From: Escherichia coli
Lineage (GTDB): Bacteria; Pseudomonadota; Gammaproteobacteria; Enterobacterales; Enterobacteriaceae
Length of the DNA stretch: 64,000 nucleotides
Assembly (NCBI RefSeq): GCF_001677475.2
Contig: NZ_CP015229.1
Direction: 5' to 3' (one strand)
Below the pieces are notes generated by a model. The model was given only the letters and a program-made list of their open reading frames with translations, was not told the DNA's origin and did not search any database. Positions 17,528 to 57,829 of this stretch are shown here, piece after piece. Position 1 is the first letter of the stretch; each line of letters begins with the position of its first letter. Position numbers and translations under genes: made by a program.

Positions 17528-17956
17528 ATGACAATCCATAAGAAAGGTCAGGCACACTGGGAAGGCGATATCAAACGCGGGAAGGGAACAGTATCCACCG
17601 AGAGCGGCGTGCTGAACCAACAGCCGTATGGATTTAACACGCGTTTTGAAGGCGAAAAAGGAACCAACCCTGAAGAACTGATTGGCGCAGCGCATGCCGC
17701 ATGTTTCTCAATGGCGCTTTCATTAATGCTGGGGGAAGCGGGATTCACGCCAACATCGATTGATACCACCGCCGATGTGTCGCTGGATAAAGTGGATGCC
17801 GGTTTTGCGATTACGAAAATCGCACTGAAGAGTGAAGTTGCGGTGCCGGGTATTGATGCCTCTACCTTTGACGGCATCATCCAGAAAGCAAAAGCAGGAT
17901 GTCCGGTTTCACAGGTACTGAAAGCGGAAATTACGCTGGTATTAGACGTCAACTAG
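17528..17956 (+). CDS. osmC: osmotically inducible peroxiredoxin OsmC, with its last residues replaced by IS-derived codons
   Basis: MTIHKKGQAHWEGDIKRGKGTV... through ...VLKAEITL, then VLDVN-stop read from the IS end. The expected native C-terminus DYQLKS-stop is found intact at 20355..20375, on the far side of the IS. Confidence 0.85.
   Translation: MTIHKKGQAHWEGDIKRGKGTVSTESGVLNQQPYGFNTRFEGEKGTNPEELIGAAHAACFSMALSLMLGEAGFTPTSIDTTADVSLDKVDAGFAITKIALKSEVAVPGIDASTFDGIIQKAKAGCPVSQVLKAEITLVLDVN
17932..17938. repeat. target-site duplication (TACGCTG), left copy
   Basis: The same 7-mer is found at 20348..20354 directly flanking the other IS end. Confidence 0.55.
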
Positions 17957-18004
17957 TTTTGCCGACTCGCGCCAACTATACTGGCCGCACCCTTCAGGGC
18001 GACA

Positions 18005-18760
18005 TCAAGTCGCGCTTGTTACTGCCTTCGCTGTCTTTTTCCTGTAGCTTTCCCCTTTCAGTTCGAACATATATCCGTGATGGATCAGCCTGTCTGCCGC
18101 AGCCACCGCCATAGTCTCATCCACGAAGATGCTGCCCCACATGCTGAACGGATGGTTACTGGTTATCACCAGGCTCCCACGTTCATAGCGATGCGCTATT
18201 AACTCGAACAGCACACCCGTTTCGGCACTATCGCGTTTGACATAGCCAAGATCATCCACCACTATCACCCGGTAGCGATCCAGTTTCAGTAGCAGCTCAT
18301 TCAGTTTCAACTGAGCTCTGGCTTTACGTAGTTCCTGCAACAGCTCTCCTGCGCTGTAGAACCGGGCCCGGTAGCCCTGACCTACTACGCCATCCACGAT
18401 CGCTGCCGCCAGATGGCTTTTCCCCAACCCGCTGGCTCCGAACAGCAGAACGTTTTCTCCTGCATCAACCCAGTCTGTCGTTTCACAGAGTTGCCGGAAC
18501 TGAGCTCCATTCAGTTCCGGCACCTGACTGAAGTCGTATTCGCTCAGCGTTTTGGCAACTGGCAACCGGGCCTCCTTTTTATAACGACGCAGTTTTTCAC
18601 TCTCGCGCCACAGGAGTTCTTCATTGCATAGCGTCAGAAGATAGCGCGATGGTGTCCAGCCTTCTGCCAGCGCTCGTTTTTCCAGAGCGTGCCATTCAGC
18701 TCCAACTCGTGTCAGGCGTAGTTTACGCAGGCTATGTTCAAGGTGATGGATATTGCTCAC
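18005..18760 (-). CDS. istB: IS21-family helper ATPase IstB
   Basis: 251 aa with Walker A GASGLGKSHLA and Walker B VIVVDDLG; start overlaps the istA stop (ATGA), typical for IS21. Confidence 0.88.
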   Translation of the reverse strand: MSNIHHLEHSLRKLRLTRVGAEWHALEKRALAEGWTPSRYLLTLCNEELLWRESEKLRRYKKEARLPVAKTLSEYDFSQVPELNGAQFRQLCETTDWVDAGENVLLFGASGLGKSHLAAAIVDGVVGQGYRARFYSAGELLQELRKARAQLKLNELLLKLDRYRVIVVDDLGYVKRDSAETGVLFELIAHRYERGSLVITSNHPFSMWGSIFVDETMAVAAADRLIHHGYMFELKGESYRKKTAKAVTSAT

Positions 18761-20256
18761 TGCGAACCTCCCTTGCCACGCAGTAGTTGCTCATAACTGC
18801 TCAGGTTATGCTGTATCACATTGACTACCGGCAACGCCTTTTCTTTTATACCCAGGAAGCGCATCAGCCGGTGCAGATCCACGTTTCCCGGGGTATTCAG
18901 CATCTGCTCCATACCTTTTGCCACGACTGAGATATCGTCGTATCCTGCAGCCAGTTTCAGGGCATGTACCATCAGCCTTCCTGCCATATCGGGCTCCAGA
19001 TGATTACATAAGCGACGCCACAGCCTCCGCCATTCATCGTCCGGCAGGATGTCATTTCTCAGCGTTGCATGGCAGAACGCACCGGGCTTTTTTGCCAGAC
19101 TGTCGATCACATGTCGGAAGTCGATACGACGGGCCCGCGTCTTCCCTTTTTCTGGTCTGACGCGAGGGCAGCTCATGACCTCGCTGCTGCCAACGTAACA
19201 GCTCAGACGATCGTCCCATAACCTGACCCGTAACAGTTGACCTACAAGCCGGGAAGGTACGCTGTAGACGACGTGCTTCACATTGATGGTACTGCTGCGA
19301 CTAACCCTCACAGTCAGCTCATCATAGTCAGCACTGCGACGAAGCGGCAGCGGTTTCAGATGAAGACGTTCTTCCTTGACCAGATCCTGATTGTTACGGT
19401 TGTGCCGCATAACCTGCTGAGTGATGAAGGCCTGATATTCTTCTATGGTGCTGAAGTCGTTACTGCCCCGCAGTATCAGCGCCTGACAGATACGCCTTTT
19501 CAGATGTCCGTGGGCACTTTCAACCGAGCCATTTTCGTGGCCCCGACCGGCATTATTGTGTACGCCCTGCATTCCGTAGTGCTGACAGAGAGTAGCATAA
19601 CGCTCAGTCAGCTCGCGGCGTCCATCTTCGCCCTGTTGTTTCCATGCTGCCCTCAGGCTGTCCGTTTTATGTTCTACCGGCACTCCGCCCAGTTGTCCGA
19701 GGGCTTCCTGCAGGCCTTCAGCCAGAGCAGAGAAGCTCTCACCACCCAGAACAACCCGCATCCAGCTCCAGTGGCTCCATTCCAGACGGAAGTGATACAA
19801 CTTATGCGCCAACAACTTACCGGCGATGGTGACAACTACACCTTTCAGTTCAGTAAAGTCCGACAGGCCTCGCAGGCCGGGCTGATGTTGCTGGCGGAAC
19901 ATGACCTCCTGCTCTGTACCATACTGTAGTTTCCATTCGCGAACCCGCCGTTGCATTGTTCTTCGAAGGCTGTTGGGGTACTGGCCGGGATATTTATCCT
20001 GTAGCATCTCCAGTAGAGTTGTTGGTGTCAGAGCCGGCCTCTCTTTCAACAGAGGAACAAGCATGCTGTCCCACACAGCTTCCAGAGGATCTTTGCGTGT
20101 GCGCCAGTGCCGAACACTGTTTTTTGCCCACTCTCCTTTTTCGATCCGACGACCAGAACGGACTGAGATACCAGCCTTCATGGCCGAGATATGCTGAGTT
20201 ATACCTTTCTTACGCTGAGTCATATAGTAACTGACCTGAGAAGTATTGAGCGTCAC
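18757..20256 (-). CDS. istA: IS21-family transposase IstA
   Basis: 499-aa ORF with N-terminal HTH and a DDE-type integrase core (HTDSLRAAW...GHENGSVESAHGHLKR); an alternative start is the internal Met at MTQRKKG. Confidence 0.85.
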   Translation of the reverse strand: MTLNTSQVSYYMTQRKKGITQHISAMKAGISVRSGRRIEKGEWAKNSVRHWRTRKDPLEAVWDSMLVPLLKERPALTPTTLLEMLQDKYPGQYPNSLRRTMQRRVREWKLQYGTEQEVMFRQQHQPGLRGLSDFTELKGVVVTIAGKLLAHKLYHFRLEWSHWSWMRVVLGGESFSALAEGLQEALGQLGGVPVEHKTDSLRAAWKQQGEDGRRELTERYATLCQHYGMQGVHNNAGRGHENGSVESAHGHLKRRICQALILRGSNDFSTIEEYQAFITQQVMRHNRNNQDLVKEERLHLKPLPLRRSADYDELTVRVSRSSTINVKHVVYSVPSRLVGQLLRVRLWDDRLSCYVGSSEVMSCPRVRPEKGKTRARRIDFRHVIDSLAKKPGAFCHATLRNDILPDDEWRRLWRRLCNHLEPDMAGRLMVHALKLAAGYDDISVVAKGMEQMLNTPGNVDLHRLMRFLGIKEKALPVVNVIQHNLSSYEQLLRGKGGSQ

Positions 20257-20347
20257 GCCATTTCCTGTTGGATCATGTAAATGACACTCAGGTTACAAAA
20301 CCGGCCAGAATAATCGGCGCCAGGCGGACTGAGTTATTGTCGTCTCA

Positions 20348-20354
20348 TACGCTG
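20348..20354. repeat. target-site duplication (TACGCTG), right copy
   Basis: See left copy; followed by the displaced native osmC 3' end gattaccagttgaaatcgtaa (DYQLKS-stop). Confidence 0.55.
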
Positions 20355-20381
20355 GATTACCAGTTGAAATCGTAAAGCGTT

Positions 20382-20403
20382 GCCGGATGACGCGTCATCC
20401 GGC
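20382..20403. terminator. perfect 22-bp palindrome (gccggatgacg/cgtcatccggc), likely bidirectional terminator
   Basis: Exact inverted repeat between the native osmC stop and the convergent dehydrogenase gene stop (20410). Confidence 0.5.
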
Positions 20404-20409
20404 GAACAC

Positions 20410-21180
20410 TTACTGCGCTACCCAACCGCCATCCATATTCCACGCCACCCCACGCACTTGTGCTGCCGCATCCGAACAGAGAAACAGCGCCAGTTCACCC
20501 AGTTGTTGCGGAGTCACAAATTCACGAGAAGGCTGTTTTTCTGCCAGTAAGGCGTCACGCGCGCTTTCCGCATCTTCGCCTTGCGCAATGCGCTTATCAA
20601 TCTGCTGTTGTACCAGCGGCGTCAGCACCCAGCCAGGGCAGAGCGCGTTGCAGGTAATACCCGTCTGCGCAGTTTCCAGAGCAATGGTCTTTGTGAGTCC
20701 CACCACGCCATGTTTTGCCGCAACATAAGCTGATTTGTCTTTCGACGCTACCAGCCCATGCACAGAGGCAATGTTAATGATCCGACCCCAGTTACGAGTG
20801 CGCATTTCTGGCAGTGCCAGACGCGTGGTGTGAAAGACAGAAGAGAGATTGATGGCGATAATGGCGTTCCATTTTTCTACAGGGAAAGATTCAACCGGGG
20901 AGACATACTGGATCCCGGCGTTATTCACCAGAATGTCCACACCGCCAAATTCCCGCCGTGCGTAGGCCATCATGTTGATAATTTGCGATTCATCGCTGAG
21001 GTCTGCCTCATGATAGCCAGGCGTTTTACCCATACGAGAAACCGCATTGATTGCCGCGTCAACATCACCGAAGCCGTTGAGGATCACTTGCGCGCCAGCG
21101 TTTGCCAGTGTCTGAGCAATACCGAGTCCGATACCGCTGGTGGACCCCGTCACCAGCGCAGTTTTACCTTGTAAATTCAT
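20410..21180 (-). CDS. short-chain dehydrogenase/reductase, 3-hydroxybutyrate dehydrogenase-like
   Basis: 256 aa; TGSTSGIGLGIA cofactor motif, NNAG, and the SxnYxxxK catalytic pattern (SAYVAAKHG). Overall resemblance to BdhA-type D-3-hydroxybutyrate dehydrogenases. Confidence 0.8.
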   Translation of the reverse strand: MNLQGKTALVTGSTSGIGLGIAQTLANAGAQVILNGFGDVDAAINAVSRMGKTPGYHEADLSDESQIINMMAYARREFGGVDILVNNAGIQYVSPVESFPVEKWNAIIAINLSSVFHTTRLALPEMRTRNWGRIINIASVHGLVASKDKSAYVAAKHGVVGLTKTIALETAQTGITCNALCPGWVLTPLVQQQIDKRIAQGEDAESARDALLAEKQPSREFVTPQQLGELALFLCSDAAAQVRGVAWNMDGGWVAQ

Positions 21181-21191
21181 GATGATTTTCC

Positions 21192-22583
21192 TTAGACAAT
21201 GCCGGTGGTGTAGTACACGCCGATGATAAACAGCACGGCCAGACTTTTAATGATCGTAATTGCGAAGATGCCGCCGTAAGCCTGACGGTGACTCAGCCCA
21301 GTAATTGCCAGCAGGGTGATCACAGCGCCGTTATGGGGCAATGTATCCATGCCGCCACTGGCCATAGATGCCACGCGGTGAAAAACTTCCAGTGGAATAT
21401 TGGCAGCGTGCGCAGCGGCAATAAAAGTGTCGGACATAGCCGCAAGAGCAATACTCATCCCGCCGGACGCTGAACCGGTAATTCCGGCAAGTGTGGTGAT
21501 GCTGATGGCTTCGTTGAGTAATGGATCAGGAATGGCGGCCAGCGCCTTTGAGAGCACCAGAAAACCGGGTAGGGCGGCGATAACCGCACCGAAGCCATAT
21601 TCTGAGGCGGTGTTCATCGCAGCCAGAATTGCGCCGCCTACCGCTGTACGGCTTCCTTCTGCCAGTCTTCCATGAATATTGCGATATCCAAAAATCACTA
21701 CCAGCAAAATTCCGGCAATGAGCGCAGCTTCGACGGCCCAGATTGCGGTGATTTTGGCGACATCTGTGGTAATCGGGGCGGTAAGTCCCGGCAACTCCAG
21801 TTGGTGGCTCGCACCGTACCAAACAGGGATCCACCAGGTAAACAACAAGTTCAACAGCCCCACCAGAATCAATGGTGAAATCGCAATGAGTGGGTTCGGT
21901 AAATTGATGTTATCTGGTGTTTCAGGTTCATTAAGTAACTCTGTGCCGTAACCTTCATTTTTTGCCTGCGCTTTACGACGCTGCCGCTCCAGATAGATAA
22001 GCCCGACGGCAATGATAAACAGTGAACCAATAAGCCCCAGCCACGGCGCGGCCCAGGCGTTGGTGCCAAAGAAACTGGTAGGAATAATGTTCTGAATTTG
22101 TGGCGTGCCGGGCAGAGCGTCCATAGTAAAAGAGAATGCTCCCAGGGCCACCGTTGCCGGTATAAGTCGTTTTGGGATGTTACTCTGGCGGAACAGTTCA
22201 GCCGCGAACGGATAAACGGCAAATGCCACCACAAACAGCGACACTCCGCCATAGGTGAGTAATGCACATACCAGCACAATCACCGGAATCGCATGCCGCC
22301 GGCCGAGAATGTTGATTGCAGCAGCGACAATCGAACGAGAAAATCCTGAAAGTTCAATCAGTTTTCCGAACACGGCCCCGAGCAGAAACACCGGGAAGTA
22401 CAATTTCACGAAGCCGACCATTTTTTCCATGAACAGGCCGGTAAATGCTGGGCCAACGGCCCCCGGATCGGTGACAAGAACAGCGCCTAATGCTGCGATG
22501 GGGGCAAAAAGGATAACGCTGTATCCGCGATAGGCTGCCAGCATTAGCAGCCCAAGCGCGGCAAGGGCGATTAATACACTCAT
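21192..22583 (-). CDS. GntP-family hydroxy-acid/H+ permease
   Basis: 463 aa, highly hydrophobic with GntP-like organisation; gene order resembles Bacillus yxjC-scoAB-bdh. Confidence 0.8.
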   Translation of the reverse strand: MSVLIALAALGLLMLAAYRGYSVILFAPIAALGAVLVTDPGAVGPAFTGLFMEKMVGFVKLYFPVFLLGAVFGKLIELSGFSRSIVAAAINILGRRHAIPVIVLVCALLTYGGVSLFVVAFAVYPFAAELFRQSNIPKRLIPATVALGAFSFTMDALPGTPQIQNIIPTSFFGTNAWAAPWLGLIGSLFIIAVGLIYLERQRRKAQAKNEGYGTELLNEPETPDNINLPNPLIAISPLILVGLLNLLFTWWIPVWYGASHQLELPGLTAPITTDVAKITAIWAVEAALIAGILLVVIFGYRNIHGRLAEGSRTAVGGAILAAMNTASEYGFGAVIAALPGFLVLSKALAAIPDPLLNEAISITTLAGITGSASGGMSIALAAMSDTFIAAAHAANIPLEVFHRVASMASGGMDTLPHNGAVITLLAITGLSHRQAYGGIFAITIIKSLAVLFIIGVYYTTGIV

Positions 22584-22628
22584 CGGGACTCCTCAATATC
22601 GTTGTTATAGTGGGTACAGCGAGAGAAG

Positions 22629-23552
22629 TTATGGTTTAAGGGCGAAGCGAAGTTGATGTTCCCGACGCTGCTGGATGTACTGCTTCCGCGATTCATCCCA
22701 GCAGTAAAATCCCTGACCGCTACGTACGCCGATGTCTCCACGTTCCACTTTTTCGGCAACTAATGACATCATGTCGCTGCCAGTCGCTAGTTCAGGGAGC
22801 AGATGGCGACAAATATCCTGCACCGTCGAAAGTCCGGTCATGTCGGCGGCCTCCAGCGGGCCGACCATGGCATAACGTCGCCCAAGCGAGGCGCGCATCA
22901 CCTGATCCACCACTTCTGCACTGGCGATGCCGCTTTTTACGATATGCAGGGCTTCACGCAACAGTGCAAATTGCAGACGGTTGCCGACAAATCCTGGCGC
23001 AGCGCGATCCAGCAACACTGCTTCCAGTTGCAGTGACACAAGCAAGTGTTGCAGCCAGTGCAAATGCTTTGGCTCGGTAACGCTGCCGGGGATAATCTCC
23101 ACAAGTGGAATGAAGTGCGGCGGATGCCAGAAATGGGCGATCAGCAGTCGTTGCGGGTAGCGCATCTTCGCGGCCAGATCATCGGGCGGCAGACCGCTGG
23201 TATTGCTGGCGACAATGGCCTCAGGAGAAATAAGCGTTTCAAGCTCGGTATATAATGCGTGTTTTAGTTCAAGTCGCTCCGGGATCGCCTCAATCAGTAG
23301 TTGCGAGTCGGCGATGTCTGCAAGAGAAGTCGTGCCGTGCAGACGTTTAAGCACATTCTCTTTTTCCGGGGCAGTAAACTGTTCGCAGCTAATCAGCTCA
23401 TCAAGAATTCCGCCTGCAACTACGTGGATTTCTGCAATCCGGCTCTGCTCGGTATCGTACAGCCAGATATCATGACCAAAGCGGGCGAAATGAGTGGCAA
23501 TCCCCACGCCCATCAATCCGGCGCCCAGTACCGCAAATTGTTCAGTTTGCAT
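22629..23552 (-). CDS. 3-hydroxyacyl-CoA dehydrogenase-family NAD-dependent dehydrogenase (subfamily with the HPP..IPLVE motif)
   Basis: 307 aa; N-terminal Rossmann fold ([12 protein letters not shown]) and [14 protein letters not shown]. That motif is the variant I associate with family members acting on free 3-hydroxy acids (L-carnitine or L-gulonate 3-dehydrogenase type) rather than classic Hbd. Confidence 0.75.
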
Positions 23553-24746
23553 GGTGTTCTCCTGTGGTTCTTTCCAGTGTCAGCGCCACGCCCTGACCGC
23601 CACCGACGCACAGCGTCGCCAGCCCTTTTTGCGCATTACGTCGCGCCATTTCATAAATGAGAGTGACCAGAATGCGGCAACCGGAAGCGCCAATAGGATG
23701 CCCAAGTGCGATTGCGCCGCCGTTAACATTCACTTTGTCGCAATCCCAGTTCAGTTCGTCGCCAACGGCCAGCGCCTGCGCTGCGAAAGCCTCGTTGGCT
23801 TCAATAAGATCAATATCTTCCAGCGTCCATCCGCAACGCTTAAGACATTCGCGGGAGCGGCGACCGGACCAATGCCCATAAAGGCAGGATCGACGCCAGA
23901 AACGGCATAACCAGCCACCCGAGCCAGCACAGGGAGACCAAGTTCGGCAGCTTTGCTGGCGCGCATTAACATGACTGCGGCGGCACCATCATTGATGGAA
24001 GAAGCATTTCCTGCGGTGACGCTTCCCGCCCCCGGAAGAAAGGCCGGTTTCAGTTGTGCTAGTTTTTCCAGTTGCGTCCCGGAACGTGGTTGTTCGTCGG
24101 TATTTACCCTGCGTGGTGGTTTTTTACCTTGTGGTACGCTGACCGGAGTAATTTCGTCTGCAAAGCGCCCGGCTTCCATTGCGGCAGCGGCTTTTTGCTG
24201 AGAACGTAGCGCGAATGTGTCCTGTCGCTCGCGACTGATGGCATATTTTTGCGCCAGGTTTTCTGCAGTAATGCCCATGTGGTAATCATTGAAAGCGTCC
24301 CATAGTCCGTCATGCACCACGCTGTCTTTCATGCTGGTATGCCCGAGGCGTAAACCTGCCCGTGCGCCATCAATAAAATAGGGCGCGTTACTCATGCTTT
24401 CCTGGCCACCTGCGATAATTATCTGTGCATCACCGCAACGGATCGCCTGTACGGCCTGGTGTACTGCTTTCAGACCGGAACCACATACCAGGTTGATGGT
24501 AACGGCGGGTGTATCGTGGCTTAACCCGGCTTTGAGCGCCGATTGCCGTGCCGGATTTTGTCCGCTTCCGGCAGTCAGGACCTGACCAAAAATCACTTCG
24601 TCGATCTGTTCTGCTGCAAGTGCTGTTTTCTCCAGCAATGAACGGATGGTGGCAGCGCCGAGATCAACCGCAGAAAGTGGGGCGAGAGCGCCATGAAAAC
24701 AGCCAATCGGTGTGCGCGTAGCGGCAACAATAACAACGTCCTGCAT
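23542..24746 (-). pseudogene. acetyl-CoA acetyltransferase (thiolase) gene interrupted by a 1-nt frameshift
   Basis: The N-terminal ORF (23751..24746; MQDVVIVAATRTPIG...GIGPV) and the C-terminal ORF (23542..23733; ...[25 protein letters not shown]...) are both thiolase but in different frames. Manual translation shows the thiolase frame resumes ([29 protein letters not shown]...) just after GIGPV, so the shift lies near plus-strand 23850-23862. Confidence 0.75.
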
Positions 24747-24755
24747 GGTGATTCC

Positions 24756-25412
24756 TCAGTTGAATTGCATTTCCGGGACATGTTCCGGCACAAACAACTT
24801 ACCGGCGGTTTTGGCGATGATTTCCGCAACGCTGATTCCCGGCGCGCGCTCGCGCAGAATGAAAGCTCCGTCAGCAATTTCCAGCAGAGCAAGGTCGGTT
24901 AAGACGCGTTTGATGCATCCGGCGCCGGTCAACGGAAGGGTACAGTCAGGAAGCAGTTTGGATTCGCCGGATTTGGAGGCGTGGGTCATTACCACAATAA
25001 TATTCTCGGCACCGGCAACCAGATCCATGGCACCGCCCATGCCTTTAACCATCTTGCCGGGGATCATCCATGAGGCAATGTTGCCATTCACATCCACTTC
25101 AAATACGCCAAGTACAGTCAGATCCACATGACCGCCACGGATCATGGCGAATGATTGCGCCGAATCGAAAATTGCCGCGCCTTTCCGCGCGGTAACGGTT
25201 TGTTTACCGGCATTAATCATGTCGGCGTCCAGTTCGTCTTCCGTAGGAAATGCGCCCATTCCCAGCAAACCGTTTTCTGACTGCAACATCACATCCATCC
25301 CGTCAGGAATGTAGTTTGCCACCAGGGTCGGGATACCAATGCCGAGATTGACGTAATAGCCATCGCGCAATTCGCGGGCGACTCGCATCGCCATTTGTTC
25401 ACGGGTTAACAT
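24756..25412 (-). CDS. 3-oxoacid CoA-transferase subunit B (ScoB/AtoA/DhcB-like)
   Basis: 218 aa; conserved ...SENGLLGMGAFP... region with the catalytic Glu of family I CoA-transferase beta subunits. Confidence 0.85.
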   Translation of the reverse strand: MLTREQMAMRVARELRDGYYVNLGIGIPTLVANYIPDGMDVMLQSENGLLGMGAFPTEDELDADMINAGKQTVTARKGAAIFDSAQSFAMIRGGHVDLTVLGVFEVDVNGNIASWMIPGKMVKGMGGAMDLVAGAENIIVVMTHASKSGESKLLPDCTLPLTGAGCIKRVLTDLALLEIADGAFILRERAPGISVAEIIAKTAGKLFVPEHVPEMQFN

Positions 25413-25414
25413 GG

Positions 25415-26122
25415 TCAGGCTCCTTTGCGGCTAAGGGTGCGTTGTTCAATGCGTTTTTCAAATTGCCCCTGAATGACGCGATTAACAAAAATCCCCGGGG
25501 TATGGATAGCGGCAGGATCAAGTTCACCAGGTGGCACTATTTCTTCCACTTCCACCACGGTGATTTTTCCGGCAGCCGCCATCAGTGGGTTGAAGTTTTG
25601 CGCGGTATGACGATAAATCACGTTGCCGTACCAGTCGGCTTTCCAGCCTTTGACCAGGGCAAAATCACCGGTGATAGCCTGTTCCATGATGTACGGGCGA
25701 CCGTTGAATTCGCGGACTTCTTTCCCTTCGGCAACGGGAGTACCGTAACCGGTGGCAGTAAAGAACGCCGGGATACCCGCGCCGCCTGCGCGCAGTTGTT
25801 CTGCCAGGGTTCCTTGTGGTGTGAGAATCGCCTCCAGTTCGCCGTTAAGCACCTGTTTTTCAAACAAAGCATTCTCGCCAACATAAGAAGCGACGACTTT
25901 ACGGATCTGTCGGCTTTCCAGTAGTACATCCAGTCCAAAACCATCTACGCCACAGTTATTGGAAACCACCGTTAATCCGGTTACTCCACGGTGGCGAACT
26001 TCAGCAATCAGATTCTCCGGGATGCCGCACAGGCCAAAACCTCCTGCCAGAATCGTCATCTCATTGGTAAGTCCTTCAAGCGCCTCGTGATACGTAGCGA
26101 CCCGTTTATCCAACCCAGCCAT
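25415..26122 (-). CDS. 3-oxoacid CoA-transferase subunit A (ScoA/AtoD/DhcA-like)
   Basis: 235 aa; MAGLDKRV... and the [10 protein letters not shown] motif typical of alpha subunits; 2-bp spacing to subunit B. Confidence 0.85.
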
Positions 26123-26263
26123 ACAGTTGCCCTCCAGTTGTCCTTTTCAACATCATTAAGGGCAAAAAATGATTTGTTAATTTTAAATTTGTGACTCATT
26201 CATTTGTATTATTTATCAATACAATGTTAATTAAATGTATTCAGTAGGTTAACGGGGTGCCAG

Positions 26264-27154
26264 ATGAAAATGAGCATCAAACAGTTACGCGCGTTTTTAG
26301 CGGTAGCTCACACTCTGAACTTTGCCCATGCCAGTGAACGGCTGAATATGTCGCAGCCTGCGCTAAGTCTTGCCATTAAAGGACTGGAAGATGCCTTAGG
26401 GGGCGCTTTACTGCTGCGTACTACGCGAAAAGTGACATTAACCCAGGAGGGGGAAACGCTATTGTCGATGGCACGGCCTTTGCTGGCTGACTGGGATAAC
26501 ACTGAGGAGGCCATGCGTCAGCGATTCACGCTCAGGCGGGGCAAAGTCTCGGTGGCAGCGATGCCGTCATTTGCAGCCAACGTTCTGCCTCCGGTGCTGA
26601 AAACCTTCCGCGATTGTTATTCAGGGATTAATGTCACCGTGCACGATGTGGTGAATGAGCAGGTGATCGAAATGGTGAGCGAAGGGCGTGTGGAGATGGG
26701 TATTGCCTTTGAACCTGACTATTGCGGCCATGTGCATTTTACCCCACTGGGCGTGGATCGGTTTGTCGCTATTGTTCCAGCCGATTCACGACTGGCAAAT
26801 CGGCAACGCGTGAGTTGGCGGGATTTGCTGACGCTCGATTTTATCACCCTCCAGCGACCGTCAGCCGTCAGGTTGATGCTGGAGGAGCAGTTGGCACAAA
26901 GTGGAACGCAACTGGAAGTGTCGCTGGAAAGCCATCAACTGGTTACGGTTGGGCGGCTGGTGGCAAACGGTTTGGGAGGAAGCGCTGTGCCTGCGCTGTG
27001 CCGCAGGCAGATGAGCGAACTGGGCGCAGTGTGTCTGGAACTGGATAATCCAGTGATTGAGCGACGAGTAGGCGTACTGCGTTCGTCACACCATAAGCTT
27101 TCTACTGCGGCGCAGGCGTTGATGGAAACGTTAAAAAAAACCTATGACGCATAA
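26264..27154 (+). CDS. LysR-family transcriptional regulator, divergent from the CoA-transferase operon
   Basis: 296 aa; N-terminal HTH (IKQLRAFLAVAHTLNFAHASERLNMSQPALSLAIKGLEDALG) plus a LysR substrate-binding domain; the start may be the ATG at 26270. Confidence 0.85.
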   Translation: MKMSIKQLRAFLAVAHTLNFAHASERLNMSQPALSLAIKGLEDALGGALLLRTTRKVTLTQEGETLLSMARPLLADWDNTEEAMRQRFTLRRGKVSVAAMPSFAANVLPPVLKTFRDCYSGINVTVHDVVNEQVIEMVSEGRVEMGIAFEPDYCGHVHFTPLGVDRFVAIVPADSRLANRQRVSWRDLLTLDFITLQRPSAVRLMLEEQLAQSGTQLEVSLESHQLVTVGRLVANGLGGSAVPALCRRQMSELGAVCLELDNPVIERRVGVLRSSHHKLSTAAQALMETLKKTYDA

Positions 27155-27190
27155 CGTTTCCGCAGACATGCAATAGCCGGATGCCGCGTC

Positions 27191-52622: not shown

Positions 52623-53023
52623 AAATGTTCCTCTTCTTATTGTACTTAATTCCAAAGTAATTTTACGAAGAGAAATAAGTGGATGTAAGTGAAGTTAGTC
52701 ACATAAAGAGATAGCAGATTTAGCTAAAAAAAGGGAAATAACAGTCCATAAAGCGTTGACATTACTTTTTGTTCTACTAAGTAATTTCTCGACGATAAAC
52801 AACTAATCTATTGATATTTAATAAATTATTGTATTTTACTGACAAAATGCCGAATTAAGATCATAAATAATCATGCAACAGGTTATGCAAATGCATAAAT
52901 ATGTGATGAATGTCACTTATTTATTTCAATAAATATATCGCCTAAAAACAACGCGGGGCAGGAAATGGCTGCCCCATTTAATTCTTACGTAGCGTGTGTG
53001 GTTGACTACTCGTTAGCAAATAA

Positions 53024-53785
53024 TCAAATAGCTAAAGCATTCATCGTGTTGCCCTTATTCATACCCGTGTGCCTTTGACAACGGTACTCCTTAGAAACTC
53101 TCTTTGGACTGTTGCCAAAATGTTTGCGGAACGCATAAATAAAATAAGATGTACTGGCATAACCACATTGTTCGGCAATTTTATTGACTGAACCTTCTAC
53201 GCGTATCAAATTTTTTGCGTGCTGCATTCTGGCATCTAAAAGAATCTGTGAGAATGTCGTTTGCTCTTGCTTAAGTTTTTTCTTCAACAGGCTTTCACTG
53301 ATGTACAGGCAGTCACAAATATCTTTCAGCTTCCATGGGTGCGCCAGCTTCATGTTGACAATATTTCTCACTTTCCCGGAAACGGATAGCACACCGTTAG
53401 TTAATAGTGTAATGAAACCTTTGCATGCGGCAAAAATAGACAGGCAAGAAAAAAGCAAAAGTTCTGAAAAATTATGATGATTGCGTTCTTCCGAGTTGAG
53501 ATAAGCAATCATTTCATTAAGCAATCCAGTCGGTACATTTGAAGCACGTAAAAACTTCGCAGGAACAGGCACCGTCACTGTCTGGATGTTAGTGCATTGT
53601 AGATATTTTTTAATGGTATTTTCATTAAATCCGATTTCTTTAAAATGCCGCTCATAAGGTTCAAAATGCGTACGAACAGCGTTATCTACCATCAAGATCT
53701 CGCCGTCAGAGAAGGCGTAATCTTTATCTAAAATGTTAGCGTTGAAGGCATGATGAATAAATATAACAGAACAAACGAGCGACAT
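53024..53785 (-). CDS. ydeO: AraC-family acid-resistance regulator
   Basis: 253 aa; C-terminal AraC HTH; matches YdeO as recalled. Confidence 0.88.
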   Translation of the reverse strand: MSLVCSVIFIHHAFNANILDKDYAFSDGEILMVDNAVRTHFEPYERHFKEIGFNENTIKKYLQCTNIQTVTVPVPAKFLRASNVPTGLLNEMIAYLNSEERNHHNFSELLLFSCLSIFAACKGFITLLTNGVLSVSGKVRNIVNMKLAHPWKLKDICDCLYISESLLKKKLKQEQTTFSQILLDARMQHAKNLIRVEGSVNKIAEQCGYASTSYFIYAFRKHFGNSPKRVSKEYRCQRHTGMNKGNTMNALAI

Positions 53786-53859
53786 TTTATCTCCTTAAAA
53801 CAATAAAGTTTTTATCGATACTTTTTTAACATTTCATATTTATAATTTGCTGTTTATTT

Positions 53860-54057
53860 TCAGTCTTGCAAACTATTGATAATGAAATGTGTAATATCTC
53901 TTGCAATGCGACCCATTTCTGAAATACCCAGCTGATCAATTGCCGAAAAAATGGCTATCAACGTAAGTGTCAGTAATAAGACAACCACAATTACAGACAT
54001 GATTTCTTTATAGTTGTCTCTTTGCGTGATTTTGTTTTTCACTGTGGTCGCATGCAT
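53860..54057 (-). CDS. safA: two-component connector membrane protein SafA
   Basis: 65 aa MHATTVKNKITQRDNYKEIMSVIVVVLLLTLTLIAIFSAIDQ...; single TM helix; directly upstream of ydeO. Confidence 0.85.
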   Translation of the reverse strand: MHATTVKNKITQRDNYKEIMSVIVVVLLLTLTLIAIFSAIDQLGISEMGRIARDITHFIINSLQD

Positions 54058-54168
54058 TTCAAATATGTTTATTTAGCGGATAACGTTAAAAATCGTTAAT
54101 CAGTATGCTTAATATAACAGGCTGGAGAAAAGAGGAAATAGGACTGGTGCTTCAGTACTGAGCGGAGT

Positions 54169-54186
54169 TTCTTACAGCTGTAGGCA
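54169..54186. promoter_or_regulatory. EvgA-box-like motif TTCTTACAGCTGTAGGCA upstream of safA-ydeO
   Basis: About 112 bp upstream of the safA ATG; nearly identical to a second copy at 56825..56842 upstream of ydeP. Both operons are known EvgA targets. Confidence 0.45.
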
Positions 54187-54304
54187 GAAGTTTATATCTT
54201 ATAGTATGTAGTTTAATTTAATCCATGTGAGCAAATTGCGCGATAATAGTCAATGAGGAATTCTTCTGCTGTGCGGATGACAGCAGAAGAAATGAGAAGA
54301 GGCA

Positions 54305-56584
54305 TTAATTTGATGGTTCTAATTCAACCGGAATACTTTTATAGCCAGGAATGCCACTTAATGGATCGTGGTTATCAAGTGTTAGCATGTGATTCGATTC
54401 TGGAAAATAGGTCACCAGTGAGCGGTCAGCCATAGGGTAAATGACCACTTTTAATCTATCCATGCGGCGTGAGCTGCGCTTACCGTCTGGCGTAAGCGCA
54501 ATAAGATTAACTCTTTCGCCGTTTTTTACACGGCAAATTTTAGCTTGTTTAGCACTCATAAAGACCACATCTCGTTGACCGAATACCCCTCGATAGCGAT
54601 CATCCATACCATAAATCGTCGTGTTGTACTGATCGTGGCTGCGTACTGTCGCCATGACCAGCTTACTATTAAACGCTGAAGAGGGATCTTCTAACAGCCC
54701 TTTGCTGGTAATGAAATTAGCCTTACCTGACGGCGTCATCCAGCGCCTTTCAGCAGCTGCATTTATCAGGTGAAAACCACCGGGATGACGGATGCGCTGG
54801 TTATAGTCGGCGAACTCTGGCAGCACAGCTTCAATGTCATTGCGAATGCGATCATAATCTTCCACCAGATACTCCCAGGCTACCACGCTCTGAGGTAGTG
54901 CTGCCTGCGCGATTCCCGCGACCACTGCACACTCTGATTTCAGCATTACACCGGCGGGTTTTAACACGCCACGCGAGGCATGAATCATCGACATTGAATC
55001 CTCAACGGTTACCGCCTGCGCACCGCTTTTTTGCATATCAATCTCGCTACGTCCCAGAACCGGCAGAATATAGCTATGCCGTGCGGTCAGCAGATGAGAG
55101 CGGTTAAGCTTAGTGGCTACGTGTACCGTCAGATCTAATTGCGTTAACGGTACAGCGCTCGCTTCCCGATCTGGCATTGCAAGTGCAAAGTTGCCCCCCA
55201 TGCAGATCAATGCTCGAGCTTGCCCCGTACATATAGCTTGCATGCTGGCAATTGCAGCATGTCCAGGTGCATGAGGTGGGGTGAAGCCATAGCGCTCACC
55301 AAGGCGAGCCAGAAACTCTGCAGACGGTTTCTCGGTGATACCGACGGTTCGGTCGCCCTGTACATTAGAGTGACCTCGTAGTGGGCAGATACCCGCACCA
55401 GGCTTGCCAATGTTACCTTTCATCAACAGCAGATTGACCAGTTGCTGTACATTCTGGGTACCATGTTCGTGCTGAGTGATCCCCATTCCGTAACAGATAA
55501 TGGTGCGTTCGGCAGCGACATATGCATCAGCCAGTTCGGCGATTTGAGTCTGACTTAATCCAGAAATACGTTCGATATCTTTCCACTCGGAATTGAGAAC
55601 GTCACGGCGTAGCTCGTCAAAGCCGACGGTATGCGTTTGAATAAATTCGTCATCCAGCAATGAGGGCCGACCTGCGGCGCTTGCAGCATCATCGCGCTCA
55701 ATTAACAGGCGCATCATCCCCTTGAGCAACGCCATATCGCCACCAATGCGCACGTTATAGTAGGCACTAGCCAACTGAGTCTCAGAGTTCGTCAGCATTT
55801 CAAACGGGTTTTGCGGTGCGGTAAATCGCTCCAGGCCACGTTCCTGTAGAGGATTGATGGCGATCATTTTCGCTCCCCGTTTCACTAAAGCGCGCAACGA
55901 AGTCAACATGCGAGGGTGGTTTGTACCAGGGTTATGCCCAATGCAAATGACTAAATCGCACTTCTCAAAGTCTTCCAGCAACACGGTCCCTTTACCCACA
56001 CCGATACTCGCTGCCAAACCCACACTGGTCGGTTCATGGCACATGTTGGAGCAGTCGGGAAAGTTATTGCTCCCGTATTCACGGGCAAAAAGCTGATAAA
56101 GAAAGGCAGCTTCATTGGAAGTGCGCCCCGAAGTATAGAATTCAACCTGATTGGGATCACTATAGCTTTGAAGGCGAGCGCCAATTTCGTCGAAAGCTTG
56201 TTGCCAGCTTAATGGCTTGTAACAGTCGCTGACGGCATCATATTTCAAAGGCTGAGTGAGACGCCCGGCAGCCTCAAGCTCGTGGTCTCCCCAGGTAAGT
56301 AATGATTGAACCGTATTCTCAGCAAAGAAAGAGGCGTTTACCTGCTTATCCGTGACTTCCCAGGCGATTGCTTTTGCGCCGTTTTCACAAATGTCGAATG
56401 ACGCACTGTGCTTAGGATCTGGCCATGCACAACCCGGACAGTCAAAGCCCTCTGGCTTATTCATGTCAAACATGGCAATAACATCCTGGCGTATATCCAT
56501 CTGCTTACGTACTGCATTCGCTACGGATTTAACAGCACCCCAACCACCGGCAGCTCCCTGGTAGGATTCAATTTTTTTCTTCAT
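54305..56584 (-). CDS. ydeP: molybdopterin oxidoreductase (formate dehydrogenase-like) required for acid resistance
   Basis: 759 aa; N-terminal Cys cluster ([11 protein letters not shown]...) and molybdopterin-binding domains. Confidence 0.88.
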
Positions 56585-56824
56585 CTGCTTATCCTGTGTG
56601 GAAATGAATTATTAGGATTTGTAATAGCGATGATGCACAGTATATACAAAGGGATTATCGTCAACATGGATATAAGAGTAGGGGACTACTCTCTTTCTAT
56701 TTTAATCTATTATCGTTAAACAAAAGATTAAATACGATAAATTAAGCATCATCTCTCGTAGTGTTTAAATTAACATATTTTTCAATATAAAAAATAAGAC
56801 TCTGGCGTTAATTGTGCGCGGATT

Positions 56825-56842
56825 TTCTTACAGGTGTAGGAT
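56825..56842. promoter_or_regulatory. EvgA-box-like motif TTCTTACAGGTGTAGGAT upstream of ydeP
   Basis: 15 of 18 positions identical to the safA-upstream copy; about 240 bp upstream of the ydeP ATG. Confidence 0.45.
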
Positions 56843-56914
56843 AATAGCCTTCACAAAATAATTATCCGCGCAATTTTCGCGAATGGAGCGCATAGACTAA
56901 GGTCAAAATCACAA

Positions 56915-57829
56915 TTATTCATAGATAAAAGTGACACCAATGACTGACTGGACGGTTCCGGCTGAAACTTTGTTTCCTGTTTGTCCATAGGTTGCGCTTA
57001 AACCCAGAGGTACTTTGCTTTTATTTACTGTCCCCAGGGAGACGTTTTCTCCCGTAGCCAGTATTTTTCCATTACGCATCAGAGAGACACCCACTCCCGA
57101 TGCTTTTGTTGCATCTGGTGCTGTGTTAGCAAACACTTGTCGGGCACTGTCAGTGGTGGCACCCGAAAGATAAAATGAGAGCTTTTGTTCACTTGAGCAA
57201 TATACGCCAAGTGGTATTTCTGCGCTTCCAGGAAAGTCCGGGAGATTCACGTTGACATTACGACTATCAACGGTGCAGCCGCCTGTTGGCATAACAACAC
57301 TGTTATTTGAAATAATATTCCACGTAAAATTACGCGGATTTCCGCTTCCTAACGTGGCAATTTTATACATATGAATACGGGCAATAACTTCCCCGGCTTT
57401 TATGACAACTCCACCGGCCGCACCGACTGGGGTAATATAGAGTTTTAACGGTAATGGCATCGGTGTCTTATCACCAATATCTAATACATTAGTATTTGTC
57501 GTCAACGGGAAGGGGTAGGTCACACTATTCCAGTACAGCGATCCTTTATATGACTGTAGGGAGCCTGCGAAAGCTGAGCCTTGTACCAGGTTTATATGAT
57601 CAGTATCGTACCAGCCGCCGTAATCATTCCAGCAACTTATATGCTGAGACAAGTCTACAACCAGATTCTGTCCCGGTTGTATTACAGGGTCGAGATTAAC
57701 ATAAACAGAGGTTGTACCTGCTCCAATACTTGCCCCGCCATCGACATTACAACTGAAGGCAAAAACTTTGCCTGCCATTAATAGAAGATAAATACCGAAC
57801 AGGACCTTTATACTGATTGTTTTACCCAT
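56915..57829 (-). CDS. ydeQ: fimbrial tip adhesin, FimH-like two-domain protein (F9/Fml adhesin type)
   Basis: ORF trimmed to ATG 57829 ([32 protein letters not shown]...), 304 aa; signal peptide then lectin-like domain plus pilin domain. Confidence 0.85.

Follow-up and report, generated by a model that had tools for sequence, protein, structure and literature searches.

Two imperfect palindromes of 18 bp, found upstream of ydeP and of safA-ydeO in the 64,000-nucleotide stretch of Escherichia coli DNA that we analysed (the window), are very probably the operator sites, or EvgA boxes, of the promoters of these genes. They are EvgA sites already known from E. coli, and the sequence-only reading that pointed them out was correct but not new. 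EvgA binding to these very bases is supported by secondary citations together with sequence evidence, namely the presence of the same motif at other EvgA promoters and the two top ranks in a weight-matrix scan, and this evidence upholds the assignment to EvgA made in that reading.

The window aligns collinearly, at 96-98% identity, with about 1.541-1.5905 Mb of E. coli K-12. As had been claimed, the two sites are located upstream of safA-ydeO and ydeP, both of which are encoded on the minus strand; ydeQ, ydeR, ydeS and then a full-length usher gene are also on the minus strand locally. The boxes, genes and intervening terminator are as follows.

53024-53785, minus strand: ydeO, AraC-family acid-resistance regulator, second gene of the safA-ydeO operon
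53860-54057, minus strand: safA, 65-aa connector protein, first gene of the safA-ydeO operon
54169-54186, minus strand: probable EvgA box of the safA-ydeO promoter, TGCCTACA-GC-TGTAAGAA in gene orientation; 21.3 bits, rank 2
54261-54291, minus strand: ydeP terminator hairpin, upstream of the safA box; -11.5 kcal/mol, z = -6.9
54305-56584, minus strand: ydeP, putative acid-resistance oxidoreductase
56825-56842, minus strand: probable EvgA box of the ydeP promoter, ATCCTACA-CC-TGTAAGAA in gene orientation; 23.4 bits, rank 1

The boxes lie 111 nt upstream of the safA start codon and 240 nt upstream of that of ydeP. The hairpin at 54261-54291 lies upstream of the safA box and terminates ydeP there, so each box belongs to a transcription unit of its own; another terminator-like hairpin is present at 56864-56884. 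The fimbrial usher gene farther upstream (58950-61601) is intact and encodes 883 aa, while its K-12 counterpart is the truncated ydeT only.

On the plus strand, positions 54169-54186 read TTCTTACAGCTGTAGGCA and positions 56825-56842 read TTCTTACAGGTGTAGGAT. A direct check of the sequence bears out the reported near-identity, with mismatches at positions 10, 17 and 18 only (15/18 identical). The proposed common core, TTCTTACA-N2-TGTAGG, is present at both sites and nowhere else in the 64 kb when as many as two mismatches are allowed, although this search is circular because its pattern was itself taken from the two sites. Moreover, chance alone is expected to supply many pairs of 18-mers matching at 15 or more positions in 64 kb, from about 700 if bases are treated as independent to 2,150 according to samples drawn from the window. 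Pairwise likeness was therefore rejected as sufficient evidence, and the significance of the sites must rest on other grounds.

What we take to be the EvgA box consensus is an 18-bp inverted repeat of the half-site TTCYTACA with a 2-bp spacer (TTCYTACA-N2-TGTARGAA). Each box in the window departs from the palindrome TTCYTACANNTGTARGAA by one mismatch, and the promoter-proximal half of the safA box is a perfect half-site; 14/18 and 12/18 positions are self-complementary in the two boxes. The EvgA boxes of the K-12 regulon reportedly go back to work by Masuda & Church 2002/2003 and by Itou et al. 2009, which later papers cite.

We searched the K-12 regions of other EvgA-activated operons with this palindrome, allowing up to three mismatches. 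The 22-kb region that carries emrKY, evgAS and yfdXWUVE yields four matches where 0.34 are expected: one between emrK and evgA, a perfect palindrome upstream of frc, and two upstream of yfdX. An additional match is found upstream of yegR, in 8 kb for which 0.10 are expected. All five are intergenic and upstream of EvgA-induced operons, and the palindrome could be re-derived from these K-12 promoters (emrK/evgA, frc, yfdX and yegR).

A weight matrix built exclusively from the five K-12 boxes, with the safA and ydeP sites excluded, was then applied to the approximately 64,000 positions of the window. The two boxes occupy ranks 1 and 2, and the third-best score of 8.3 bits falls 13 bits below them. 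The matrix test is not circular in itself, but the location of its training sites is partly so, in that it relied on a consensus resembling the window sites, although their placement upstream of EvgA-induced operons constitutes independent evidence. Among 200 simulated windows (first-order Markov), the maximum was 19.0 bits and none reached 21.3. The matrix detected no further EvgA box in the 64-kb window; motif scans in total covered the window and about 100 kb of K-12.

Related elements are used by other regulators, and the main protein bound at these sites might in principle be another member of the NarL/FixJ family with half-sites of the TCCTA/TAAGA type (for example RcsB or GadE), with EvgA acting indirectly. 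RcsAB and BvgA sites do contain related TCCTA/TAAGAA elements. However, the RcsAB box differs from the 8-2-8 arrangement with its TACA-N2-TGTA centre, and the motif recurs exactly at EvgA-induced promoters, including that of emrK, the divergent partner of evgA. Direct binding by EvgA is also on record for safA-ydeO, ydeP, emrKY and yfdX/yfdW (PMC9496106, PMC8174306, PMC3720670). None of our results favours a different main binder, which we regard as very improbable.

These published data also bear directly on the two operons. The safA-ydeO promoter is given as bound directly by EvgA (PMC9496106, citing Itou 2009) and ydeP as being under direct EvgA regulation (PMC8174306, citing Itou 2009), while the dependence of both operons on EvgA is stated in PMC9496106, PMC8174306 and PMC11210196. 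An EvgA binding site accompanies every gene that is known to be a direct EvgA target (PMC4283999). Direct activation of the two operons by EvgA, which the sequence-only reading had stated, is backed by PMC9496106, PMC8174306 and PMC4283999, and both direct binding and EvgA-dependent activation are taken here from this literature, including PMC11210196. In addition, inverted repeats that EvgA binds are described upstream of both yfdX and yfdWUVE (PMC3720670), which fits the places where the K-12 palindrome was found.

Natural variation at the two boxes was examined in an alignment of nine E. coli strains, comprising the source of the window, K-12, HH97, an O157:H7 strain, 88-3493, an O166:H15 strain, SMS-3-5, M7424 and NGF1. 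The variable columns are positions 1 and 10 of the safA box and positions 2, 9 and 10 of the ydeP box, so that none of the 28 core columns varies, versus five of the eight spacer and outer columns. Variation is confined to the 2-bp spacer and the outermost distal bases. A more diverged locus, L012 (NZ_JAATUR010000028.1), is only 84% identical over ydeO-ydeP. Its intergenic DNA has largely diverged, but the longest blocks to stay conserved there contain the two boxes, in unchanged positions. This pattern indicates that the contact positions of the boxes are under purifying selection.

In a scan of species-representative genomes for the box plus its flank, only E. coli-like contigs and one Desulfosporosinus sequence were matched. 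The latter is taken as a chance match because its contig has no other similarity to the window. Neither E. albertii nor E. fergusonii matched the strict box-plus-flank pattern in this one scan.

Some of the sequences recovered have unusual labels. L012 (positions 1718-5797 of its contig) belongs to a GTDB species representative labelled E. coli SCPM-O-B-8794 and is 91.5% identical in the adjacent DNA; its safA open reading frame encodes 63 aa. It probably derives from a different Escherichia species whose acid-resistance locus is unusually diverged. A contig binned as ‘Candidatus Nanosynbacter sp.’ (JARKOR010000108.1, 142-12980) is 98% identical to the present locus over 12.8 kb and is almost certainly a contamination of the metagenome bin.

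The window also departs from K-12 at a distance from the boxes. A 9.2-kb segment (17945-27190), inserted between osmC and ddpF when compared with K-12, contains an IS21-family element (IstB, 18005-18760; IstA, 18757-20256) and a cluster annotated as a GntP permease, an acetyl-CoA acetyltransferase, 3-hydroxyacyl-CoA and 3-hydroxybutyrate dehydrogenases and a LysR regulator. About 1.5 kb at 5290-6827 is missing from the yddK/yddL region of K-12, with flanks 96-98% identical. Among 5,426 complete E. coli genomes, 5,394 of which carry the ydeO-ydeP locus (52900-57000), the best identity to this locus is 98.5%, whereas the 3-hydroxybutyrate cluster is 99.8% identical to that of E. coli PCN033; the source strain therefore lies outside the genome set and may be mosaic here.

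The two promoters have a common geometry. Each contains an extended -10 element of the form TGnTAwwTT, and the spacing from box to element is exactly 50 nt at both promoters, in the window as well as in L012, where the safA element is kept as TGCTATATT and the ydeP element as TGCTAATTT.

54111-54119, minus strand: predicted extended -10 element TGTTATATT of the safA-ydeO promoter, starting 50 nt downstream of the box end
56767-56775, minus strand: extended -10 element TGTTAATTT of the ydeP promoter, starting 50 nt downstream of the box end
56759, minus strand: position matching the first nucleotide of the K-12 ydeP 5′ leader, mapped onto the window from the methods of PMC11210196

In K-12, the ydeP leader begins 178 nt before the ATG (PMC11210196). 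The equivalent position in the window, 56759, is 8 nt after the TAATTT of the ydeP -10 element, which places the ydeP box at -66 to -83 with its centre at about -74.5. By the same geometry, safA transcription is predicted to start near 54103-54104, which would put its box at about -65 to -83. No -35 hexamer can be recognised in either promoter, a feature expected of activator-dependent promoters.

A simple sigma-70 scan proposed the pair TTAACG-16-TATATT for ydeP. We set it aside in favour of the TGnTAATTT element because the first base of the published K-12 leader is another 17-18 nt downstream, because TGnTAATTT is the element conserved in L012, and because the spacing of this element to the box matches that at safA. 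Positions 56805-56810, which are 16-21 nt downstream of the ydeP box, read TTAACG in the window and in SMS-3-5, versus TTGAAG in K-12 and most strains. Just downstream of the predicted safA start is a direct repeat, TTAACGATTTTTAACG (54086-54101, minus strand), that is largely conserved in L012 and could be a repressor site. PhoP and YdeO have each been reported to lower safA expression (bioRxiv 10.64898/2026.05.06.723403).

When six EvgA-box promoters were aligned with the box as anchor, a shared element became apparent at offsets of 24-33 nt downstream of the box, in the region normally occupied by -35.

54136-54145, minus strand: element AGTCCTATTT in the safA -35 region, 24-33 nt downstream of the box
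56792-56801, minus strand: element AGTCTTATTT in the ydeP -35 region, at the same box offset as in safA and conserved in L012

At the same offset, yegR carries AATCCTATTC, emrK AGTCCTCTGT, and frc and yfdX both carry TCTCTGATT; a CA dinucleotide at offsets 9-10 is invariant in the six promoters. The conservation of this anchored alignment is reached by 0/5000 random shifts, and in subsets that omit likely paralogues by 7/3000 and 3/3000. The element weakly resembles an EvgA half-site (GTCCTATT), with agreement at 5/8 positions in safA, ydeP and yegR. With a half-site matrix, the mean score likewise peaks at offset 25 when the matrix is oriented like the distal half-site, and 9/3000 shifts reach this value, although absolute scores are near zero. 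The distance from the proximal half-site is 32 bp, or about three helical turns.

These observations suggest that the element could be a weak third half-site, or could simply be a shared signature of the -35 region. A bolder proposal is that EvgA promoters share a rigid architecture beyond the box, with the box near -74, the CA dinucleotide and, as a substitute for the -35 hexamer, the element (A/T)(G/C)TC(C/T)T(A)TTT at -41 to -32. We offer this as a doubtful generalization, more apt to prove wrong than right.

Similarity between the safA and ydeP promoters extends beyond the boxes, which raises the prospect that they are duplicates of one ancestor and that the boxes are alike by descent and not through selection as binding sites. 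When the two are aligned on the box, they agree at 42 of the 75 positions downstream, a total reached by only 38/3000 random shifts, and the shared stretches include AA-TCCGC adjoining the box and TGTTAwwTT at offset 50; frc and yfdX likewise share CTCTCTGATT at one offset. That the two promoters arose by duplication is plausible, and this would be compatible with operator function. As a substitute for operator function, however, descent is hard to credit, since emrK and yegR carry the same box and -35-region element without wider similarity, and variation within the species spares the core.

A chance resemblance between two functionless 18-mers in AT-rich intergenic DNA is even less credible, and we consider it effectively refuted. 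The hundreds to thousands of equally similar pairs expected in 64 kb are its only recommendation, and they do not explain why an independently built matrix ranks the two sites first and second, far above the null, why the core is invariant while the spacer varies, why the boxes are kept at 84% overall identity, or why the -10 element stands at the same distance from the box in both promoters. Finally, although the inverted repeats are located downstream of ydeQ and ydeP, where terminators of these genes might be sought, a reading as RNA or DNA hairpins is refuted because a 2-nt loop cannot form one, the boxes fold no more stably than their shuffled counterparts (-1.4 and -0.2 kcal/mol), separate terminator-like hairpins are present at 54261-54291 and 56864-56884, and the region gives no match to an Rfam family.

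With the two sites taken as EvgA boxes, the best-supported scheme for their action is as follows. Under mild acid, EvgS phosphorylates EvgA, a response regulator of the NarL/FixJ family; evgAS is assumed to be present in this genome, as these genes lie outside the window and in K-12 are about 0.9 Mb away. An EvgA dimer would then occupy the two inverted TTCYTACA half-sites with their 2-bp spacer, about 74 bp upstream of the start, and activate weak sigma-70 promoters that have an extended -10 element (TGnTAwwTT) and no recognisable -35. At the box, EvgA may recruit or stabilise sigma-70 RNA polymerase, presumably by contacting it. The outputs would be YdeP, for acid resistance; SafA, which connects EvgS/EvgA to PhoQ/PhoP; and YdeO, which activates gadE and the glutamate decarboxylase system.

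The boxes thus represent the entry to the EvgS/EvgA > YdeO > GadE acid-resistance cascade and to the SafA link with PhoQ/PhoP. On the boxes themselves, our analysis adds nothing to what is known from E. coli K-12. The gain is modest: the same geometry of box and promoter is found at safA and ydeP and is shared regulon-wide, and natural variation spares the palindromic core. Both features should be useful for predicting the regulon in other Escherichia lineages.

Comparison with other regulators of this family reveals both likenesses and differences. NarL and NarP recognise 7-2-7 sites, pairs of inverted half-sites with a 2-bp gap that likewise accommodate a response-regulator dimer of the NarL family. 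Their half-site is TACYYMT, versus TTCYTACA for EvgA, and the regulons differ. BvgA of Bordetella, also of the NarL/FixJ family, binds inverted repeats of TTTCCTA-like half-sites well upstream of -35 at virulence promoters, and the EvgA half-site TTCCTACA similarly contains TTCCTA. At BvgA promoters, further dimers of low affinity probably occupy the space between these sites and -35, whereas the EvgA promoters described here show no more than a weak element at -41 to -32 that resembles a half-site. If EvgA, or EvgA together with RNA polymerase, contacts this element, activation would resemble the cooperative downstream extension of BvgA, which is the closest homologue of EvgA (PMC9496106).

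The nearest comparison is with the EvgA regulon of K-12, which has boxes at ydeP, safA (b1500)-ydeO, emrKY, yfdX, frc (yfdW) and yegR. The two boxes in the window agree with it in genes, positions and 18-bp palindrome, and no difference is of substance. The safA box is identical in the two genomes, while the ydeP boxes differ by one outer base (ATCC... in the window, AGCC... in K-12), which leaves the ydeP box of the window one base nearer to the palindromic consensus than its K-12 counterpart.
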